Shown: positions 26,239 through 58,680 of the stretch, piece after piece | Position numbering within the stretch: the stretch's first letter is position 1 | Layout: each line of letters starts with the position of its first letter | From: Roseibacillus sp. | GTDB taxonomy: Bacteria > Verrucomicrobiota > Verrucomicrobiia > Verrucomicrobiales > Akkermansiaceae | Length of the DNA: 64,000 nucleotides | Assembly: GCA_965242925.1 (NCBI GenBank) | Contig: CBDEUM010000029.1 | Location: 256,001 to 320,000 of the forward strand | Direction: 5' to 3' | The notes under the pieces: model-generated | Database searches by the model: none | Seen by the model: the letters and a program-made list of their open reading frames with translations, nothing else | Told to the model about the DNA's origin: nothing | Position numbers and translations under genes: made by a program

Positions 26239-26315
<77 letters not shown>

Positions 26316-38126: not shown

Positions 38127-40718
38127 TCAGTCTACAAAGATGAATTCGTTCAGGCAGATCACGGTCTGGCAGAAGTCTGCGATCGCCAGTTTCATGGCCT
38201 GCGCATCGCTGCCGTAGGATGCGGCCTGTCCCTGGATGAAGGCAACCATCTGCTGCTGTTCGCCGGGAGCCGGGGGGCGGGCCAGGGCATGAGTGTAGGC
38301 TCTCCGGACCACCTCGTCGACAGGGACCTTGTCGTCGGAATGAATACGCTGGGCAAATTTCTCGGCCATTTCCCGGACATAGGGAGAGTTCATCATGGCC
38401 AGGGCCTGGGGTGGAACCGTGGTGGAGATTCGTTTGCCGATGCTCTGCATGGCGTCCGGGGCATCAAAGAGTTGCAGGATGGGAATCAGGTTACTGCGCT
38501 TCACGGTAAGATAGATGCTGCGCCGGGCATGGCGCTGGTCCACAGTGCCCTTGTCGAACATGCGTTTGTCGAGGGTTCCGCTGACGGCAAGGAGCGAGTC
38601 TCGGATCACTTCCGCCTCCAGGCGGGTGGCTCCCCGCCGCCACCAGAGCCTGTTCTCCGGATCGACCTTGCGGGCGAGTTCGTTGGAGCCTCCCTGCTGG
38701 CGATAGACGGAACTCATCATGATCATCTTGTGGATGGGCTTGAGTTGCCAGCGGTGGCGGATGAGTTCCGCGGCGAGGTGGTCCAGCAGTCCGGGATGGG
38801 TGGGAGCTGCACCCTGGGTCCCAAAGTCGCTGGGCGTGTTCACGATGCCGCGTCCCATGTGGTGCTGCCAGAGGCGGTTCACGATTACGCGCGCAAGGAG
38901 GTGACCGGCTCCCCGCTGTTCGTCGGTGATCCAGTGGGCCAGGGCGACGCGGGGAGGACGATTCTCCGTGGTGGTGAGCCAGTGAGCCTCGTCCGCCCCC
39001 TCTGCCTGCAGGACGCGAAGAAAGGCCGGGGTGGCGAGCTCCTGTTTGGCATTGGAGTTTCCGCGCTCGAGGAAGTAGACCTTGCGGGTGTCACCCCCGA
39101 AGTTGTAGGTCGCTCCTCCCGTGCGGGCTGCATAGATGTTCACCAGGGCCGGCTTGGGAGTTTTCTTGGTGTGCTCCTCGACGGCGAGGTTCAGTTTGCC
39201 CCAGTCCGGGTCCCGCGGGGCGAACCACTTGAGGAGTTCCTGTTTCTGCTTCTCGTTGCGCTTGTCCGGGGACAGGGCGAGGATGTCCTCGATGTTCTTG
39301 GGGACCTCCGGATTGGTGCTGAAGTAGAAGCCGGAACCGCCTCCACCATTGACGATTTTGATCAGCAACTTGTTGGTGCCGGCCTTGAGCTGCAGGGTGA
39401 TCCGGTCCTGGTCCTTGGCCACTCCGCCCTGGACTTCCTTGGCCAGCACGGACTGGCCGTTGAGCCAGACCTTGATGGCATCGTCCCGGCCCAGGGAGAT
39501 GGGGAGAGGGCGCGCCTTGGGGACCTCGATGGTGCGGAAGAGATAGTTCGCGCTGTTGTCTCCCTGGAGGGTGTTGTGGATTACCCCGTCCTTCCATTCC
39601 GGCCTGGCGAGCCACTTCCTGTCACCGTAGGCCTTGGCGAGGTCGATTTCCTTCTCCGGGGGGAAAGCCTCGTTGTAGGCCTTCTTGAAGTCCGCAGCCC
39701 CGAAGGGACCGATATGATGCCAAGGGCTGAGGTTCTCGAGGGAAGCCGGTTTCTCCCGCTTGGCGACCCACTCGGTCAGGCGGGTTGGGAGCACATCCTG
39801 CTCAAAACGGGCCCGGGTTTCGACGAGGGGTTTGTGGGTAGCCTCAAAGCGTTCCTTGTCGGCTTTCGTCTTAGCCGGATCAGGATCGTGAGCATGGTTC
39901 TGGAAGCCGGTTTCCGCGAAGCAGGAGACAAGGCGGTAGTAATCCCTGATTGGAACGGGGTCGTATTTGTGGTCGTGGCAGCGGGCGCATCCGATCGTCA
40001 GGCCGAGCATGGAGGTTCCCATGGTATGGACAATATCGTCCAGTTGCTCGTAGCGACTGCGTTCCCGCTCCTTCTGTGTCTGCTGGGAGGTGAAGGGGCC
40101 AGCCGCCAGGAACCCGGTGGCGGCCTGGGCCATATAGTTTTCCGGTTCTATCTGATCGCCCGCGATCTGCAGTTGGACGAAGCGATCGTAGGGCATGTCT
40201 TCGTTCAGCGCCTTGATGACGAAGTCACGATAGTGATAGGCATCGCCACGGTCCTTGTCGAAGGCGTAGCCATTGCTCTCGGCGAAGCGGGCGAGGTCCA
40301 GCCAGTGGCGGGCCCACCGCTCTCCGTAGTGGGGGCTGGCGAGGAGCCTGTCGATGAGCTTCTCATAGGCCTCCGGAGATTCATTGCCGAGGTAGGCCTC
40401 AATGGCGGCCGGTTCCGGGGGGAGTCCCCAGAGACCAAACATGGCCCGTCGGAAGAGCGTACGCCGGGAGGCTTCCGGGTTCGGGGACAGATTCTGTTTC
40501 TCGAGAGGGGCAAGAATGAAGCGGTCAAGGTGGGTGCGCACCCAGGACTCGTTCTTCACGTCGGGTGGTTTGATGGTCCTGAGGGACTGAAAGGACCAGA
40601 ACTTGCGGCCCTTCTCAAGGTCGATCATCCGGGGAGGGGAAGGGGCTTCCTCGGCGATTGCGATCCCGCCGAGGGCGGTGCAAACCATGGCGGACAGGGC
40701 AATGGGAACACGGCTCAT
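38127..40718 (-). CDS. DUF1549/DUF1553 (PSCyt2/PSD1) protein with an inserted beta-sandwich
   Basis: YGERWARHWLDLARFAES, CARCHDHKYDP, VNRLWQHHMGRG, PTHPGLLD, PQAL.MMNS. Confidence 0.92.
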   Translation of the reverse strand: MSRVPIALSAMVCTALGGIAIAEEAPSPPRMIDLEKGRKFWSFQSLRTIKPPDVKNESWVRTHLDRFILAPLEKQNLSPNPEASRRTLFRRAMFGLWGLPPEPAAIEAYLGNESPEAYEKLIDRLLASPHYGERWARHWLDLARFAESNGYAFDKDRGDAYHYRDFVIKALNEDMPYDRFVQLQIAGDQIEPENYMAQAATGFLAAGPFTSQQTQKERERSRYEQLDDIVHTMGTSMLGLTIGCARCHDHKYDPVPIRDYYRLVSCFAETGFQNHAHDPDPAKTKADKERFEATHKPLVETRARFEQDVLPTRLTEWVAKREKPASLENLSPWHHIGPFGAADFKKAYNEAFPPEKEIDLAKAYGDRKWLARPEWKDGVIHNTLQGDNSANYLFRTIEVPKARPLPISLGRDDAIKVWLNGQSVLAKEVQGGVAKDQDRITLQLKAGTNKLLIKIVNGGGGSGFYFSTNPEVPKNIEDILALSPDKRNEKQKQELLKWFAPRDPDWGKLNLAVEEHTKKTPKPALVNIYAARTGGATYNFGGDTRKVYFLERGNSNAKQELATPAFLRVLQAEGADEAHWLTTTENRPPRVALAHWITDEQRGAGHLLARVIVNRLWQHHMGRGIVNTPSDFGTQGAAPTHPGLLDHLAAELIRHRWQLKPIHKMIMMSSVYRQQGGSNELARKVDPENRLWWRRGATRLEAEVIRDSLLAVSGTLDKRMFDKGTVDQRHARRSIYLTVKRSNLIPILQLFDAPDAMQSIGKRISTTVPPQALAMMNSPYVREMAEKFAQRIHSDDKVPVDEVVRRAYTHALARPPAPGEQQQMVAFIQGQAASYGSDAQAMKLAIADFCQTVICLNEFIFVD

Positions 40719-40849
40719 ATGAGACCCCGATGATAGGCCCTCCGCGCCATTGGGCAAACGGGATCTTCCCGCCCGATGGGAGGACCTCAGTGGGATGGGA
40801 CCGGTATCCCTGGCGGACCGAGCTTCGGCGAGTCTCACCGGTCGGTTTC

Positions 40850-42259
40850 TCAGACCCCGAGCCCTCTGATTGGAAGAGCCTCGGAGATATACTGAGTGAG
40901 CTGTTCGGGGAGTTTGTCCGCCTCGCGGAGTTTTCCCATGTCAAAGAGCGTCCGCATGATCGTTCCCATCAGGTTCCGGGGGCCAAACCCTTCGGTGGCT
41001 GGTTCCGCGGCGATGTTGTCCGACTCTCCGATGACCTGTCCCATGTGGAGTCCTCCCCCGGCGAGGAGGAGGCTGGTGAGCTTCCCATAGTGGTCGCGCC
41101 CGCCATTTTTGCTGAGTTTCGGGGTTCTTCCCATCTCGCTGGTGACCACGAGGAGGACATCATCGCTCAGGCCCCGCTGAGCGAGATCCTCAATGAAGGC
41201 GCTCACCGCGTGATCGACCTGGCCGCCCATGGGGTAGAGCCCCTCCATGTTCTTGGGGCTGTTGTTGTTGGCGTGGTAGTCCCACCCGCAGTCGGAAACC
41301 GTGACAAATCCCGCGCCCTGCTCCACGAGACGGCGGGCCATGAGCATCTGCAGGCCGAGAAGATTACTGGCCCGGCGCATGTCGTGCCAGCGCTGGAGCT
41401 TCTTCTGGTCGAAAAGGGGACGGGTGTCGTAGCGGGCCACCGTGCGGGGATCCTCCCCGGACAGGTCAAAGGCCTTGTCGATGCCGGCGGTGAGGACGTC
41501 GAAGGCCTGTTGCTGGACCCGGTCGGCTCCCTCGATCACCCCTGATTCGTCGGCCTGGCGGCGCAGGCTGTCGAGCTTGGAGAGGAGCGTCCGGCGATCG
41601 GTGAAGCGGTCCGGGTCGAGGGTTAGTTGCATGTCGTCGCGCAGGGGGCCCCCACCCGAGGGATTGAAGGCGCCATTCGGAGCCCCGAGTTTTCCGGGAG
41701 CGGCCACGGTGGGAAGGGCCTTGGTCTCGAAATTGCTCTCGAGCTTCAGGGTAGGATCGACGGCTTCGGGAAGAATGAGGGTGTTGTTGGGAATCGAGGC
41801 CGGTCCGAGGGGGCCTGCCACCTTGGAGTAGATCGCTCCCATCGAGGCCTCAAGGGGGTTGCCGGCGGTGGCGACCGATCCGTAGGTGTGCTGGCCGTTG
41901 TTGGACCCGTAGGAGCGGACCACGGAGAACTTGTCCGCCATCGCGGCCAGTTTGGGAAAGGTTGAGCCGAAGGTGATCCCGGGGAGCTTGGTCTTGATCT
42001 CCCCGGTGATGCTGCGCACCTCCCGCGGAGCGGTCATCTTCGGATCGAAGAATTCAATATGGGGTGCCCCCCCGTGGAGGAAGAGCAGGACCACCGATTT
42101 GCCCCGGAGCACCCCGGGGGTCCCGGCCGCGGCGGCCTTGGTGGCGAGGAGACCCGGAAGCCCCAGTCCGGCCAGGCCGAGGGAACCGACCTGCAGGAAG
42201 TCCCGCCGGGAATAGCCCGCGCAGGTCCGGTTCAGGGAGGGGTCGGAGATACGGATCAT
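40850..42259 (-). CDS. DUF1501 domain protein, Tat-exported
   Basis: SRRDFLQVG, GG..H.E.FDPK, MARRLVEQG, WDYH, EMGRTPK, GGRDH. Confidence 0.92.
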   Translation of the reverse strand: MIRISDPSLNRTCAGYSRRDFLQVGSLGLAGLGLPGLLATKAAAAGTPGVLRGKSVVLLFLHGGAPHIEFFDPKMTAPREVRSITGEIKTKLPGITFGSTFPKLAAMADKFSVVRSYGSNNGQHTYGSVATAGNPLEASMGAIYSKVAGPLGPASIPNNTLILPEAVDPTLKLESNFETKALPTVAAPGKLGAPNGAFNPSGGGPLRDDMQLTLDPDRFTDRRTLLSKLDSLRRQADESGVIEGADRVQQQAFDVLTAGIDKAFDLSGEDPRTVARYDTRPLFDQKKLQRWHDMRRASNLLGLQMLMARRLVEQGAGFVTVSDCGWDYHANNNSPKNMEGLYPMGGQVDHAVSAFIEDLAQRGLSDDVLLVVTSEMGRTPKLSKNGGRDHYGKLTSLLLAGGGLHMGQVIGESDNIAAEPATEGFGPRNLMGTIMRTLFDMGKLREADKLPEQLTQYISEALPIRGLGV

Positions 42260-42399
42260 GTCAGAAGGAACGTAAAGCCGCTGCCTTTTCTATCCCTTGC
42301 GGGAATCGCTTTCATTAATACACGATTCGATCTCCGGGAGAAAGGCTGAAAATGGATGGGCAGGACCGGTCCTATGTCACTTTTCGTTGCGCTCCAAAC

Positions 42400-42428
42400 T
42401 TGCTCTTAAGGCCGGTTTGTGCTATGCT
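42400..42428 (+). promoter_or_regulatory. Sigma70-like promoter
   Basis: TTGCTC-N17-TATGCT with an extended -10 TG; predicted TSS about 42435, at the first base of the riboswitch. Confidence 0.6.
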
Positions 42429-42435
42429 TCCGGCA

Positions 42436-42557
42436 GCATTCAGAGTGGTTCTGCCAGCCGAGAGGTGAAGGAACCCGGCAACCTGTCGCGGAGACGACAA
42501 GGTGCCTGTGCCAGCTGGCACGATGCGCGGCCCGAAAGGGCTGAACGAAGGTCTCCC
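42436..42557 (+). promoter_or_regulatory. SAM riboswitch, SAM-I/IV-variant-like
   Basis: P1 GCATT/GATGC with CAGAG; P2 GGTTC/GAACC; core GGCAACC..GGTGCC; P3 TGTCG/CGACA; P4 GTGCC-AGCT-GGCAC; P5 GGCCC-GAAA-GGGCT; pseudoknot of L3 GGAGAC with GTCTCC (42551-56). Confidence 0.8.
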
Positions 42558-42630
42558 TGCCCCGCTCGGGGGCGTTCGTTCAGCTCGGCCGTGGCTCCGG
42601 GTGCTTCTCCACCGGAAAGGAACCAGCATC

Positions 42631-42864
42631 ATGAGCCAAACAGCAAGCAAACCAGCCGTCCACCTCGTCAGCAAGACACGGGGCTCCCATCCCAATCACC
42701 ACCTCACCAACAACAATGGAACGTGGTGGTGCCAGATCACCATTCACCAGGGTCCGTTCTCGAGGCGGCTCCGCTTCTCCCTTGGAACGGGGGAATTGGA
42801 GCGGGCCCGCGCCCTCCGGGACCGGGTCTTTGACAATCTCACTTCCGGGGTCCGGGCGGCCTGA
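42631..42864 (+). CDS. 77-aa hypothetical protein downstream of the SAM riboswitch; possible nucleic-acid-binding fold
   Basis: GAAAGGAA RBS; NHHLTNNNGTWWC..RRLRFSLGT.ELERARALRD. Confidence 0.75.
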   Translation: MSQTASKPAVHLVSKTRGSHPNHHLTNNNGTWWCQITIHQGPFSRRLRFSLGTGELERARALRDRVFDNLTSGVRAA

Positions 42865-42905
42865 TGAACCACGTCCCTCTGCCACGAACTGGAAACTGAA
42901 AACGG

Positions 42906-43118
42906 ATGAACGGGAAAGAGAATAACACGCCCTCGCCTCAAGCGGGGAAGAAGGATGCGACGACCGGGGGGCTGCCCCCGATTCCGAGGGGATCTCTTCC
43001 CTCTCTCCCTGATTCACACCCGCTGTTCAAACGGGGCTTCGTGATCGGCGGGAGAGGGTTCAACCGGCAGGGGACCAAAAAGGACCCCAGGCAGCAGGGC
43101 GGTCGGGGTCACCGTTGA
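42906..43118 (+). CDS. Possible small hypothetical protein
   Basis: 70-aa ORF co-oriented with the orphan gene; weak RBS; mostly low complexity. Confidence 0.3.
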   Translation: MNGKENNTPSPQAGKKDATTGGLPPIPRGSLPSLPDSHPLFKRGFVIGGRGFNRQGTKKDPRQQGGRGHR

Positions 43119-43280
43119 GAAACAGGAAACAATCAGTCAGATGGAATGTGGATATTTACCAGCAAGGGGCCTCCTGCTCCCATCTCCCTTGCCATTTGGC
43201 GGAGTGATGCCCTAGTTAGTCCTGCCCGCTCAAATCTCCGTGTGAGCCATTGAGCCCAATCAGCACCGACCACAAAACCC

Positions 43281-43724
43281 GTGAAAACTGCGAACTGAAT
43301 TTGTCCCCTTCCAGCCCTGACCTGTATCCTGTCCATGGCGGGTTCCATGGTCACGGCTGCGCCGGATGGAAACCGGCTGGTGCACCTCGATGAACCGAAC
43401 AATCCGTGGCAGTTCCACCGCCACCCGACCCTCGAAGTCCCAGATCAACGTCACGCCTTGGCCCGTGGCCGTCATCACAACCGCGAAGGCGGCGAGCAGG
43501 GCCACGCCAGGGCTCAGTTTGCTTTCGGCCAGGCCTGCGCCGCGGGCAGCGGAATTCCCCGCAACATCGCGGAAGCCCTCAAGTGGCTCACCCTCGCGGT
43601 CAACTCGGGATACGGATCAGCCGCTGACGATGAACTCGCCGCCCTCAAGGCCAAGGCCTCACCGGCCGAGATCGCCGAGGGCCGGAAGCTCTCCGGCGAG
43701 TGGAAGCAGAAGGCCCCGGAGTAG
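43281..43724 (+). pseudogene. Chimeric relic: secreted-protein N-terminus + antisense CotH piece + Sel1-repeat C-terminus
   Basis: 43380-43421 is identical to 52201-52242; 43413-43499 is near-identical to 48530-48616; then EQGHARAQF..EALKWL (Sel1); in-frame TGA at 43296. Confidence 0.8.
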
Positions 43725-43897
43725 GCTGGTGCACCCCGAGGATCTCACCCGCAAGAAAGCCATCGAGATCGTCACCAAGATCCTTTCCCCCCAAGCAAAC
43801 CGGCGCATCTTGCTGCACTTTGGCTGCAGTTCAGACCCTTCGCCCCTGAAAATCAACGATCTAGGCCTACCGGTCCAATGGCCAAACCCGAACATCC

Positions 43898-46800
43898 TTA
43901 CGGGGCGGGGCTTGGGCGACCCGTGACGTTCAGCCGGAGGAATTGTGTGTTCTGAACGCTGATCGGAGCGGTGGAACGCCAGGTTTCCAGGACGGTGCCG
44001 TCATTTTGGTTGTGGCGTGACACAAACGCGACTGCAGTTCCCCGGAGCCAGGTAACGAGATCCTCGGATTGCTCGACGTGGCAGATGACGTCGTCCGCGG
44101 CGAGGTTGCGTTCGAAGGTCATAGTGAGATAGCGATCCGTCCCACCGATCCCACCGATCCCACCGATCCCAGTATCGAAGGAGCCGATGCCGGGCGTCGG
44201 GAGTGGCGTGGTGATCGAAGTTCCCGCCAGGGCGTGTTCGAGAAAGTCGCTGAGTCCATCGTTATCGCTATCGGCGACGGGATCGCCTGCGAAGTCGATG
44301 GCGTCGGTGCTACCGGGATTTCCACCGACCGCCACGCTGGGCCGCCAACTAAATGGATCGTTGTGATCCGGGTTGCTACGGGGGGCGATGAGCACCAGAC
44401 TGAAGCCGACCCCGTCGGCGCTCTCGGGCCACGGAAACTTGTCGTCATAAGTGAAAGACTGAACCACGGTGGTCCCATCCCCACCGAGGATCGTAATCGT
44501 CTCGCCTTCGTTGGCCAGATTTCCAGCATACTCTCCATGCGGCGCAAAGCCGTAGCGTTCTGTGAAGGCGGCGGCGTTTTTCGCGAGGACGAGACGCCCC
44601 TGCGGAAGCAGCGTGGTCCCGAGCGGAAAACCGAAATCGATCCCAGCCGAGAAGGAAAGCAGGGAGAGATCGATCGGACCATTGCTGATGTTCATCAATT
44701 CGAGAAACTCGTAGCCCTTTCGTTCCTGACCAACGAGGGCCTCGGCCGGAGTCTGCGGAGGGAGCGGATGGTGGTTGATCTCGCTGACCACGAGGTTGCT
44801 CGCATCGGCGGGAGTTCCCACAATAAGGGGAGCCTCCACCAAAGCGCTCCAAGTAGTTCCATCCAGGACCCGCGCCCGCAGCAGCGCCGAGGTCGAGGGC
44901 CTGAAGGGAGCGGTGTAGAGTTGCGCAGTCGCGGAGGTTCCGGTGGCACTGGTAGCATTGGATACCAGCTGTGGCAGAACCAACATGTCGTTGCTTGCCG
45001 CGGAGTCGTTCATGGCGTGAATCGCCAGCACATTGTTTCCGAGCTGCAGCCCCCCTTTGTGAGCGGAAATGTCGAAGGGCTGGAAGGCGGTGGCCTGCCG
45101 GTCGATTCGGTCGGAGGTCGCCTCCGATTGCCAGTCCAGTACGCCCGGCTCGTTCTCAGCGGCGACTCGCGTCCCGTTCAAGTAGGCCACAAATCCCGAA
45201 TCGTACTTCATGTTCAGCGTAAGGCTGTCGATGTGGTCGAGGGTGGCCTGGTTGGCGATGGTGAAGGGGATTCGCACATAGACCGAGGCGGTGGCATCCA
45301 TCATCTCGGGGACGTAGTGATTAATGAGATCCTCAAAGGCATCCGGAACTTGTTCGAAGCCCACTCCAGTGCTGCCTGACTTCCACACGGCCAGGTTGAA
45401 CGGATCGGCCAGTCCGGTCCACTGCGCGGGGATGAGGGCTGAACCGCCGTTCGCCACCGAGGGGACGAGGGCGCGGACATCTGGAGCAAATTCAGAGAGC
45501 AGCACCACCTCCTCGTTGGAGGTGTTCGACCTGCGCGGGTCCGTGTCGTCGGTCGTGAAATAGATGGCGCCGGAAGCCGGAGCCGTAAACCCAACCAGCG
45601 TATCGCCGACGGTCCCCCCGTGCCGAGGCACACCGTCGACGCGAATCTCGGGTGGAGCGAGATCGGGATAGAGGCCAAGCGCACGGAGCTGATTCAAAAC
45701 AACTCCCGTGCGCTGGGGAAAGTAGGACCGCAACAGGCGGTCGCGCTCGGGGATCCAGTGGTCGTCGCGCGTGTACAAATGATAGGGTCCCCGCAGGATC
45801 GAGTTGACGTCACGCCGGTAGTCGCCCCAGCGCGCCGACTCCGCAACCACCGCAAGCTCAATCTCAGCGGCCAGCGCCGCGTAGCGCGCCGCGGCGACCT
45901 CGGGTAGCAGCACGCCGTCGTTGAAGAAGTGCCACTGAATGCGGTCTGCAACCATGAGGCGGAACTCTTCGTTGCCGCGCAGGCGGTGGAACAGATGAGC
46001 GGGCGAAGTCGGGTGGTTAGCTCCCGTGACGTTGATGCCGACAGTTTCCATCGAGGCCTCGGCGTCCCAGGTGAAGAACCGATACTTGCCGGGAGGTTCG
46101 CGGCGGCGGGCGGCGGTCCAATTGCTGCCCGGCCAATCGTTGTTCCCGATCCAGAAGTTGATCAACATGTAGTCGATCAGGTTGGTCAGATCGAGCGCCT
46201 CGCTAATCGCCTGGAGCTCTTCCGGTGAGGAGACGCCGCTGTTTACCAAGTCGACCAGGGCGTTGTAGGAGTTCGCGCTGCCGTCTTGGACTTCGATCCG
46301 CCCGACATCGAGATTGACGACATCCCAGTCCTCCTCGTTGCCGCCGAGGATCTCCGCGAGCCAAGATGCGCGGATTCGCTCGATTGGGTTGTAAAGGCCC
46401 CAATAGTGACCGTTGATGTAGAGGTGGGCAAAGTTGCTCCTGACCGAAGTCTGCCCCATCAGGCCGAAGGTGTCGTGGACGAACTTGTCGATGACGTACT
46501 GAGCCTGCGGCCGTGGCGCGCCGACGCCCCAGGCGCCGTCGTGGATCCATGCGTCGAGGTATCCGGAGCGCAGACTGAAGGTGTCGTAGCGGTTGGTCGA
46601 CGAATCATCGAACATCTGGAACTCCAATTTGGCCGCGCCGTAAGCCTCTTTGAACAACAGGCGCAGGGAGTGCTTCGGCGACTTGTCGGGCTGTCGGCTG
46701 GCCCCGCCCTGGATGCGGATACCAGCGTCGACCTGGAACTCCCGTCCGCCCGCAGAGTTGAAATACTCGACCGACACCGGCCGCTCCCAATCCGGTCCAC

Positions 46801-58603: not shown

Positions 58604-58680
58604 TGGCGCGCCCGAGAGGAGTCGAACCCCTAACCTCCTGATCCGTAATCAGGCGCTCTATCCAATTGAGCTACGGGCGC
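58604..58680 (-). tRNA. tRNA-Arg(ACG)
   Basis: GCGCCCGTAGCTCAATTGGATAGAGC-CCTGA-TTACGGA-TCAGG..GGTTCGACTCC..GGGCGCGCCA. Confidence 0.97.

Follow-up and report, generated by a model that had tools for sequence, protein, structure and literature searches.

In the textbook view, S-adenosylmethionine (SAM)-clan riboswitches act directly on methionine and SAM genes, and where SAM status is coupled to transcription by a protein sensor such as MetJ, the protein itself binds the metabolite. Two further descriptions are close to the case studied here. The passages of Weinberg et al. (2010, PMC2864571) on SAM-I/IV describe this variant without an internal loop in P2, and those of Leyn et al. (2014, PMC4239095) on SahR describe an S-adenosylhomocysteine (SAH)-responsive regulator of the ArsR family with a 20-bp palindromic site. 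Here, we analyzed a stretch of 64,000 nucleotides, hereafter the window, from a Roseibacillus (Verrucomicrobiales) assembly of 4.58 Mb in 42 contigs that is 89.9% complete; positions given without further mention are those of the window. In it, an aptamer of the SAM-I/IV type lies ahead of an open reading frame (ORF) for a basic protein of 77 aa, and comparison with related genomes showed that, in this bacterial order, the aptamer accompanies a single small protein almost exclusively. The riboswitch is of a known kind with a structural twist. In the literature searched, that is, openly licensed PubMed Central (PMC) papers and bioRxiv, we found no paper describing the gene family or its near-exclusive pairing with the aptamer; a prior description elsewhere is possible.

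A covariance scan with Rfam matched 42431–42559 (+) to SAM-I/IV (RF01725) with 42.8 bits, above the gathering score of 41.1 (E 0.0014). The SAM-I model (RF00162), aligned end to end over 42433–42528, gave 24.6 bits vs a gathering score of 44.4. On the + strand, P1 is formed by 42436–42440/42522–42526, P2 by 42445–42451/42471–42476, with an internal loop and an extension (42457–42459/42464–42466), and P3 by 42477–42487/42496–42506. An extra P4-like hairpin (42508–42512/42517–42521) occupies the position of P4 in SAM-I, and it is followed by a 3′ hairpin (42528–42533/42538–42543). Last, the P3 loop (GGAGAC, 42490–42495) pairs with GUCUCC (42551–42556) in the pseudoknot PK-2. P1 to P4 were recovered by the minimum free energy (MFE) fold. 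Taken as a whole, the aptamer has a SAM-I-like four-way junction, to which are added a 3′ hairpin and a PK-2 pseudoknot of the SAM-I/IV type.

The Rfam score passed its threshold but was marginal when taken alone, and therefore the conservation of the aptamer was tested. Thirty-one aptamers, 30 of them distinct, were aligned with the guidance of our own covariance model, R1. In this alignment, which is fitted to R1 and so leans towards the proposed structure, 95.6% of the cells were paired and 23 of 34 pairs showed changes on both sides. None of 500 shuffles reached the observed values, and sliding the partners gave 33–47% pairing. Helices P1, P2, and P3 were supported by covariation, as was the 3′ hairpin. 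The P4-like hairpin (helix 6) covaried as well, with double changes in all four of its pairs. PK-2 had at least 5 contiguous pairs in 26 of the 30 distinct sequences, and its partners varied together (GGAGAC/GUCUCC, GGAGAA/UUCUCC, CGAGAC/GUCUCG, CGGGAU/AUCCCG, and GGAGU/ACUCC); in two records (L028 and L030) the aligned tail stops short of the site, which was recognized by eye only. The Roseibacillus aptamer matched the strongly conserved core positions of the Rfam consensus. Across aptamers, no variation was seen in the P3 internal loop or in the two central A-U pairs of P1. Within the genus, P2 carries an internal loop and a 3-bp extension with a tetraloop cap, at variance with the SAM-I/IV feature of a P2 free of such a loop; P2 is simple in more distant relatives (L026, L028, and L031). 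With conservation and covariation added, the Rfam match is decisive on the evidence of sequence comparison, and the SAM-I/IV-like aptamer proposed by an earlier, sequence-only reading of this DNA is borne out by the score, the helices, and the pseudoknot alike. What emerges is a structural sub-variant of SAM-I/IV whose aptamer bears a P4-like hairpin.

How firmly the aptamer is attached to the small gene was apparent from the related genomes. With the 77-aa protein as query, tblastn found matches, all of them short open frames, in 33 of 61 related genomes, including 14 of the 19 other genomes of the same genus. In 19 of the 29 relatives' loci that were fetched, Rfam models at E ≤1 matched a SAM-clan aptamer shortly before the gene and in its orientation (18 RF01725, one RF00162), with seven reaching the gathering score. 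R1, which was built from 19 aptamers preceding the small gene and may miss other types of SAM riboswitch, found an aptamer in 20 of the 29. When the 61 genomes were scanned in full with R1, 34 aptamers were found in 26 genomes, and 32 of them were directly upstream of a small-protein match, so that the pairing seen in the window is kept ahead of the homologs; reciprocally, 32 of 46 small-protein matches carried the aptamer. The two exceptions were an aptamer with an AAA_5 ATPase gene directly behind it and no small ORF (G042), and a weak R1 match of 33.8 bits with no recognizable gene behind it (G048). Paralogs of the small gene were noticed in five genomes, with 4 copies each in G032 and G052 and 2 copies each in G012, G015, and G051. 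Each paralog has its own aptamer except the second G012 copy, which lies at a contig end and whose matching record (L058) shows only the 3′ part of an aptamer.

The pairing extends beyond the genus. Among GTDB species representatives, 438 loci encode a relative of the protein, and 80 of them were examined further. An aptamer was present in 24 of these 80, comprising 16 Roseibacillus records and 8 others, some of which carry the labels Planctomycetota, Lentisphaerae, or Verrucomicrobia subdivision 3. When 151 genomes were sampled evenly over the phylum, R1 matched in 9 further genomes. In six of them the aptamer precedes a small-protein homolog, with a hairpin-plus-U-tract terminator in between. 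The other three, all of one genus, have the aptamer ahead of an O-acetylhomoserine sulfhydrylase gene (TIGR01326, 637–647 bits vs a cut-off of 495), and a search of these three genomes (95–98% complete) with the A1 profile found no homolog of the small protein.

The ligand is probably SAM, given the agreement with the consensus positions and the lack of variation in the P3 internal loop and in the central A-U pairs of P1. The occurrence of the same aptamer type before O-acetylhomoserine sulfhydrylase also supports SAM as the ligand; only in that other verrucomicrobial genus, and not in the Roseibacillus genome, did we find the control of methionine, SAM, or sulfur genes that characterizes SAM-I/IV. 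A different view is that, within the SAM clan, this aptamer has changed its specificity and recognizes a SAM derivative or another metabolite, and that the small protein acts in the corresponding pathway. The atypical gene association, the marginal Rfam score, and the unusual architecture, with a P2 internal loop and a P4-like hairpin in a SAM-I/IV-type fold, would fit such a variant, for which the spermidine-sensing SAM-I variants offer a precedent (PMC10853860). We nonetheless consider it quite unlikely, given the match at strongly conserved positions, the invariant P3 internal loop, the sulfhydrylase gene behind the same aptamer type, and the link of the protein, independent of the riboswitch, to a gene for a Cys/Met pyridoxal phosphate (PLP) enzyme (see below).

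The region 42560–42630 (+) between the aptamer and the 77-aa ORF would act as the expression platform. It holds the 3′ half of a long hairpin (42527–42592 overall) that competes with the 3′ hairpin of the aptamer and with PK-2. Ahead of the start of the ORF, where a ribosome-binding site had been proposed, we found the purine-rich, Shine-Dalgarno-like GGAAAGGA at 42614–42621 (+). In the MFE fold, the element GGGUGCUUCUCC (42599–42610, +) pairs with GGAAAGGA and with AGCAUC just before the AUG; the same element resembles both the 3′ strand of P1 and the 3′ strand of the pseudoknot. Forcing the 5′ strand of P1 to pair with 42600–42604 cost 4.8 kcal/mol (−103.3 vs −108.1 kcal/mol) and opened the start region. 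A UCUCC ahead of the start is kept in most leaders of the same genus, as read by eye. No U-tract terminator was found in this platform or in those of the genus. In the hairpin-plus-U-tract terminators of distant relatives, the 5′ arm CCUGAUG is complementary to the 5′ strand of P1, CAUCAGG, an arrangement that would correspond to the standard antiterminator/terminator OFF design.

We propose the following mechanism. Binding of SAM would lock the P1 helix and the PK-2 pseudoknot, GGGUGCUUCUCC would be freed to sequester the Shine-Dalgarno sequence and the start region by pairing, and the 77-aa ORF would no longer be translated, while in distant relatives a classical terminator/antiterminator would perform the same switching role. 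If the SAM-bound state blocks translation, the 77-aa protein would therefore be made when SAM is scarce, and we hold this OFF logic to be likely.

Transcription of the unit could start from a candidate sigma-70-type promoter at 42400–42428 (+), with a −35 box TTGCTC (42400–42405), a 17-nt spacer, and a −10 box TATGCT (42423–42428). A generic promoter scan of 42260–43900 returned no site, and missed this one because only 7 of its 12 consensus positions match. The promoter had been pointed out in the sequence-only reading; it is present as described and is partly conserved in an alignment of 12 relatives. In the −35 box, TTG does not vary among them; in the −10 box, the same holds for the final T, and at least 90% of the sequences have the A at position 2. 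Contigs from RNA libraries of four marine runs cover the leader and the 77-aa ORF, such contigs showing neither strand nor level. Contig ends at 42443 and 42444, in two studies, are a weak hint of a transcript 5′ end. At 42443/42444, one of the contigs carries what we presume to be adapter sequence. The interval 42329–42422 was left uncovered in 3 of the 4 runs, which we did not count as evidence.

We then considered the protein. Translation of 42631–42864 (+) gives the 77-aa protein with the motifs quoted from it earlier, and this protein belongs to an undescribed standalone family. A 26-member alignment gave an invariant core, HHL..N.G.WW...T.H......R.R.SL.T.....A...RD, with 17 invariant columns that include HHL, N, G, WW, T, H, R.R.SL.T, A, and RD. 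The description of the protein as an orphan did not survive the searches: a profile search of 1.84 billion representatives returned at least 1054 clusters at E ≤1e-3 (754 at E ≤1e-10), besides the 438 loci mentioned above. The family is found mostly in Verrucomicrobiota, including Akkermansia, and the close relatives of the protein are labelled Roseibacillus or Akkermansiaceae. All 30 database relatives of near length are unnamed or annotated as "hypothetical protein," and NCBIfam and PADLOC held nothing for the small protein.

A weak similarity to the N-terminal domains of integrases, the only argument in its favor, raised the question of whether the ORF might be a decayed N-terminal fragment of an integrase or mobile element, placed behind the riboswitch by accident. 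This is refuted, to the point of being barely conceivable, by the conservation of a 74–94-aa ORF at 34–95% identity throughout an order and outside it. None of the 150 best representatives falls outside 68–155 aa, and a search restricted to longer proteins gave 11 of 169–274 aa with no Pfam domain and no recombinase. The gene is chromosomal, usually single-copy, and not beside mobile genes. The sequence-only reading had suggested a standalone protein, and its own worry that the protein might map to a piece of an integrase can be dismissed.

Two features suggested by single sequences did not hold across the family. A zinc site made of H23, H24, C34, and H39 was rejected, the Cys being replaced by L, I, V, or F in 55 of 135 representatives and in the L152–L157 homologs. 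A C-terminal Ala-Ala, reminiscent of C-termini recognized by ClpX, was rejected as a family-wide degradation tag: it is present in 50 of the 80 genome loci but in only 37 of 149 representatives, and it is not conserved outside Akkermansiaceae.

As to the fold, the AlphaFold2 model shows three main strands and a C-terminal helix (beta-beta-beta-alpha), with a predicted local distance difference test score of 71.3 and a predicted template modelling score of 0.50. All 26 family members match Pfam DUF6538 at E ≤1, all below the cut-off and with a best E of 2.2e-5, and one member each matched Arm-DNA-bind_3 and AP2 weakly; a DUF6538 search of the whole genome gave only an E of 0.12 for the 77-aa ORF. 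VIA-align matched the model to the arm domains of HPI integrase (3jtz, Z 4.3, 24% identity) and lambda integrase (1z1b, Z 4.2), and to AP2 domains at Z 3.7–3.8. The nearest named ESM Atlas clusters were integrase arm DNA-binding domains at 0.91, a value that the tool rates as a lead only. Arm domains have an N-terminal position in tyrosine recombinases, which the small protein does not share. An Arm/AP2-like nucleic-acid-binding fold is our best guess from the model, short of demonstrated membership, and whether the 77-aa protein binds nucleic acid appears to us evenly balanced.

A link to sulfur amino acids came from loci devoid of the riboswitch. In riboswitch-less Akkermansiaceae, the small gene lies directly behind a gene on the same strand for a protein of about 500 aa of the Cys_Met_Meta_PP (cystathionine-gamma-synthase) family. 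This PLP gene was directly upstream in 5 of 9 loci and in 14 of the 80 loci examined among the 438, two sets that share species; examples are L034:4659-6167, L032:5923-7428 (−), and L151:1483-2979. A search of about 5 kb around the PLP-linked copies gave no SAM-clan aptamer. The adjacency provides a second, riboswitch-independent link to sulfur amino-acid metabolism. The best NCBIfam match of the enzyme is BesB (182–210 bits vs a cut-off of 800), and it has an N-terminal extension of about 100 aa. The Roseibacillus genome has an ortholog on another contig. In one riboswitch-less clade (L019, L064, L066, L068, L069, L072, L093, and L095), the interval between the PLP gene and the small ORF contains TTGCGC-N4-TCACA twice, at a spacing of 21 nt, a direct repeat that could be a promoter or an autoregulatory site. 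A regulon hunt with this repeat in five genomes found its other matches inside ORFs, as crudely called, and no intergenic copies elsewhere; by eye, we saw no shared motif upstream of metY.

An AAA_5 (MoxR/dynein-like) ATPase gene, encoding 466–536 aa, was seen directly behind the small ORF in three loci (L058:376-1773, L092:2728-4269, and L096:479-2017), and a further ATPase gene of this kind lies at L145:365-1972 (−). No NCBIfam or PADLOC family was found for this ATPase, which may be a functional partner of the small protein.

These neighbors are compatible with another role, in which the small protein, made at low SAM, would not be a transcription factor but would bind an enzyme or an ATPase as its accessory or inhibitor, the PLP enzyme and the AAA_5 ATPase being the candidates. 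The PLP gene directly upstream at the frequencies given above, the ATPase directly downstream in three loci, and the G042 aptamer that precedes such an ATPase without any small ORF all argue for it. Yet the PLP ortholog is away on another contig in the Roseibacillus genome and no ATPase lies behind its ORF, most loci have neither neighbor, and nucleic acid is suggested as the partner by the nearest folds and by an invariant surface rich in Arg and aromatic residues, so that we regard this role as unlikely. A complex prediction for the PLP enzyme and the small protein of the Roseibacillus genome scored 0.00 vs a mark of 0.32, and was uninformative either way.

We also looked at how the SAM cycle is controlled elsewhere in this genome. 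The aptamer was its only SAM-I, SAM-I/IV, or R1 match, the SAM-II model gave nothing significant, the remaining SAM and SAH classes not having been searched genome-wide, and neither metK nor metY has an aptamer. Instead, metK is divergently paired with the gene of a 304-aa protein made of an ArsR helix-turn-helix and a methyltransferase domain (L165, G000:C14:16332-20504, outside the window), an architecture that we take to be that of SahR. Between the two genes lies the palindrome TCAACAAAT-N4-ATTTGTTGA, of which the genome has one further copy, differing by 2 mismatches and situated 47 nt ahead of a homocysteine S-methyltransferase gene (L170, G000:C38:83605-86626, also outside the window); the palindrome was not found in the window with up to 3 mismatches. 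The SahR-like gene and the shared palindrome look like a small SAM-cycle regulon. This lowers the odds that the small protein is a master regulator of methionine, although the de novo branch could still be a target.

Since a SahR-like system already covers the SAM cycle, the protein might rather be a small DNA- or RNA-binding factor that serves methylation-dependent processes at low SAM, such as DNA repair and protection or ribosome function, and not methionine genes. Genes for DNA repair do neighbor the small gene in riboswitch-less lineages, namely recA (L020 and L100), uvrD (L022 and L067), and uvrA (L027). In the genus itself (L005–L013), a 417-aa photolyase/cryptochrome-like gene converges on the small ORF, and in Akkermansia (L060, L071, L074, L081, L100, L104, L105, L107, and L110) the small ORF lies behind rpmB, the gene of ribosomal protein L28. 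Each kind of neighbor is nevertheless confined to one or a few lineages, one or two for the repair genes, and none is conserved throughout the family, whose only recurring associations are the SAM aptamer and the Cys/Met PLP gene; we find this alternative improbable. We noticed that the gap between rpmB and the small ORF in Akkermansia contains a TTGAAC…TATAAT-like promoter and a 10–12-bp inverted repeat, whose sequence differs between species while its complementarity is kept, and that the motif GAACGCGG recurs in the Akkermansia leader.

Collectively, these data lead us to propose that a SAM-OFF riboswitch produces a small nucleic-acid-binding regulator when SAM is low, an overall reading that we believe stands about as good a chance of being right as of being wrong. 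In this scheme, the protein would be a standalone basic beta-beta-beta-alpha domain, remotely related to the Arm-type domains of tyrosine integrases and to AP2-like domains, which would bind nucleic acid and relay low SAM to targets in sulfur amino-acid metabolism. That these targets are methionine-related genes is a tentative proposal, for which we see somewhat less than an even case.

A number of observations weigh against this scheme. Twelve of the 19 Rfam matches in the relatives' loci were below the gathering score (30.1–40.4 bits), leaving Rfam support marginal, and 56 of the 80 family loci have no aptamer; in riboswitch-less loci the neighbors vary (rpmB, recA, uvrD, and uvrA). The hairpin sequestering the start region is present in the MFE fold even without ligand. 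The SahR-like regulator sits at SAM-cycle genes, whose control thus needs no 77-aa protein, and no operator was found for the small protein. For the fold, DUF6538 (PF20172) scored 15.9 bits vs a cut-off of 27 (E 0.01). VIA-align against 48,161 chains gave no Z of 5 or more, and PX domains led at 4.7. Foldseek found no match in the PDB at E ≤0.001 and none at that level in BFVD, where the best E was 0.012, with uncharacterized phage proteins, and a profile search of PDB sequences gave two chance-level matches only. The Arm-like fold of the sequence-only reading was thus weakly supported, by the predicted topology and by the weak DUF6538 similarity of all 26 members, but every score was below threshold and the Z values tied with those of PX domains. 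Finally, SAM-I variants with unusual gene associations can have another ligand, spermidine in the case of Salvail et al. (2023, PMC10853860).

Around the locus, the aptamer and the 77-aa ORF are best read as a monocistronic unit. No methionine or SAM gene is present in the transcription unit behind the aptamer, as had been remarked before for methionine, SAM, and cysteine genes, and no recognizable gene lies on the + strand for about 1 kb; for two candidate ORFs in this stretch, Pfam gave no family. Convergent with the region, on the − strand, is a gene of 1610 aa. Upstream and divergent are, as anticipated, a DUF1501 gene (40850–42259, −) and a PSD1/PSCyt2 gene (38127–40838, −). At gathering thresholds, cmscan of the whole window returned three matches, the SAM-I/IV aptamer (RF01725) and two tRNA genes (26242–26315 and 58607–58680, both −), the latter two scoring 65.4 and 65.7 bits.

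The finding points to a relay from a sensor RNA to an effector protein, in which the SAM signal appears to be passed on through a protein, and it suggests a function that can be tested for a large protein family without a name, to which a conserved gene of the gut bacterium Akkermansia belongs. More speculatively still, we can imagine a two-tier relay in the Planctomycetota-Verrucomicrobiota-Chlamydiota (PVC) bacteria, where a SAM-sensing RNA, instead of acting directly on metabolic genes, would control a small, possibly short-lived, Arm/AP2-like DNA-binding protein that reprograms transcription or methylation-dependent DNA transactions when SAM is scarce. If this doubtful but attractive idea were true, the family would constitute a new class among bacterial regulators, with its origin in the arm domains of integrases.

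Compared with known systems, the aptamer is closest to SAM-I/IV (RF01725), with which it shares a score above the gathering threshold, P1 to P3, the 3′ hairpin, PK-2, the conserved core, and, in relatives, terminator platforms of the OFF type. It differs by the extra hairpin at the P4 position, by the P2 internal loop in the genus, and by the control of a small protein and not of a methionine or SAM gene. With SAM-I (RF00162) it shares the four-way junction of P1 to P4, whereas its score is below the gathering threshold and the 3′ hairpin and P3-loop pseudoknot are added. Like the spermidine-sensing SAM-I variants, it is a SAM-clan aptamer noticed through an unusual downstream gene; in those variants, conserved regions contacting SAM are changed (PMC10853860), whereas the present aptamer retains the conserved positions and has a sister aptamer that controls metY. 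The protein resembles integrase Arm domains (lambda Int, HPI integrase, DUF6538, and Arm-DNA-bind) and AP2 in the predicted three-stranded sheet packed on a helix, but it is standalone and chromosomal, has no recombinase domain, and scores below the family thresholds. Finally, like SahR (PMC4239095), the system would couple SAM/SAH status to transcription; in SahR the protein itself binds the metabolite, whereas here the sensing of SAM would fall to the RNA and only the execution of the response to the protein.

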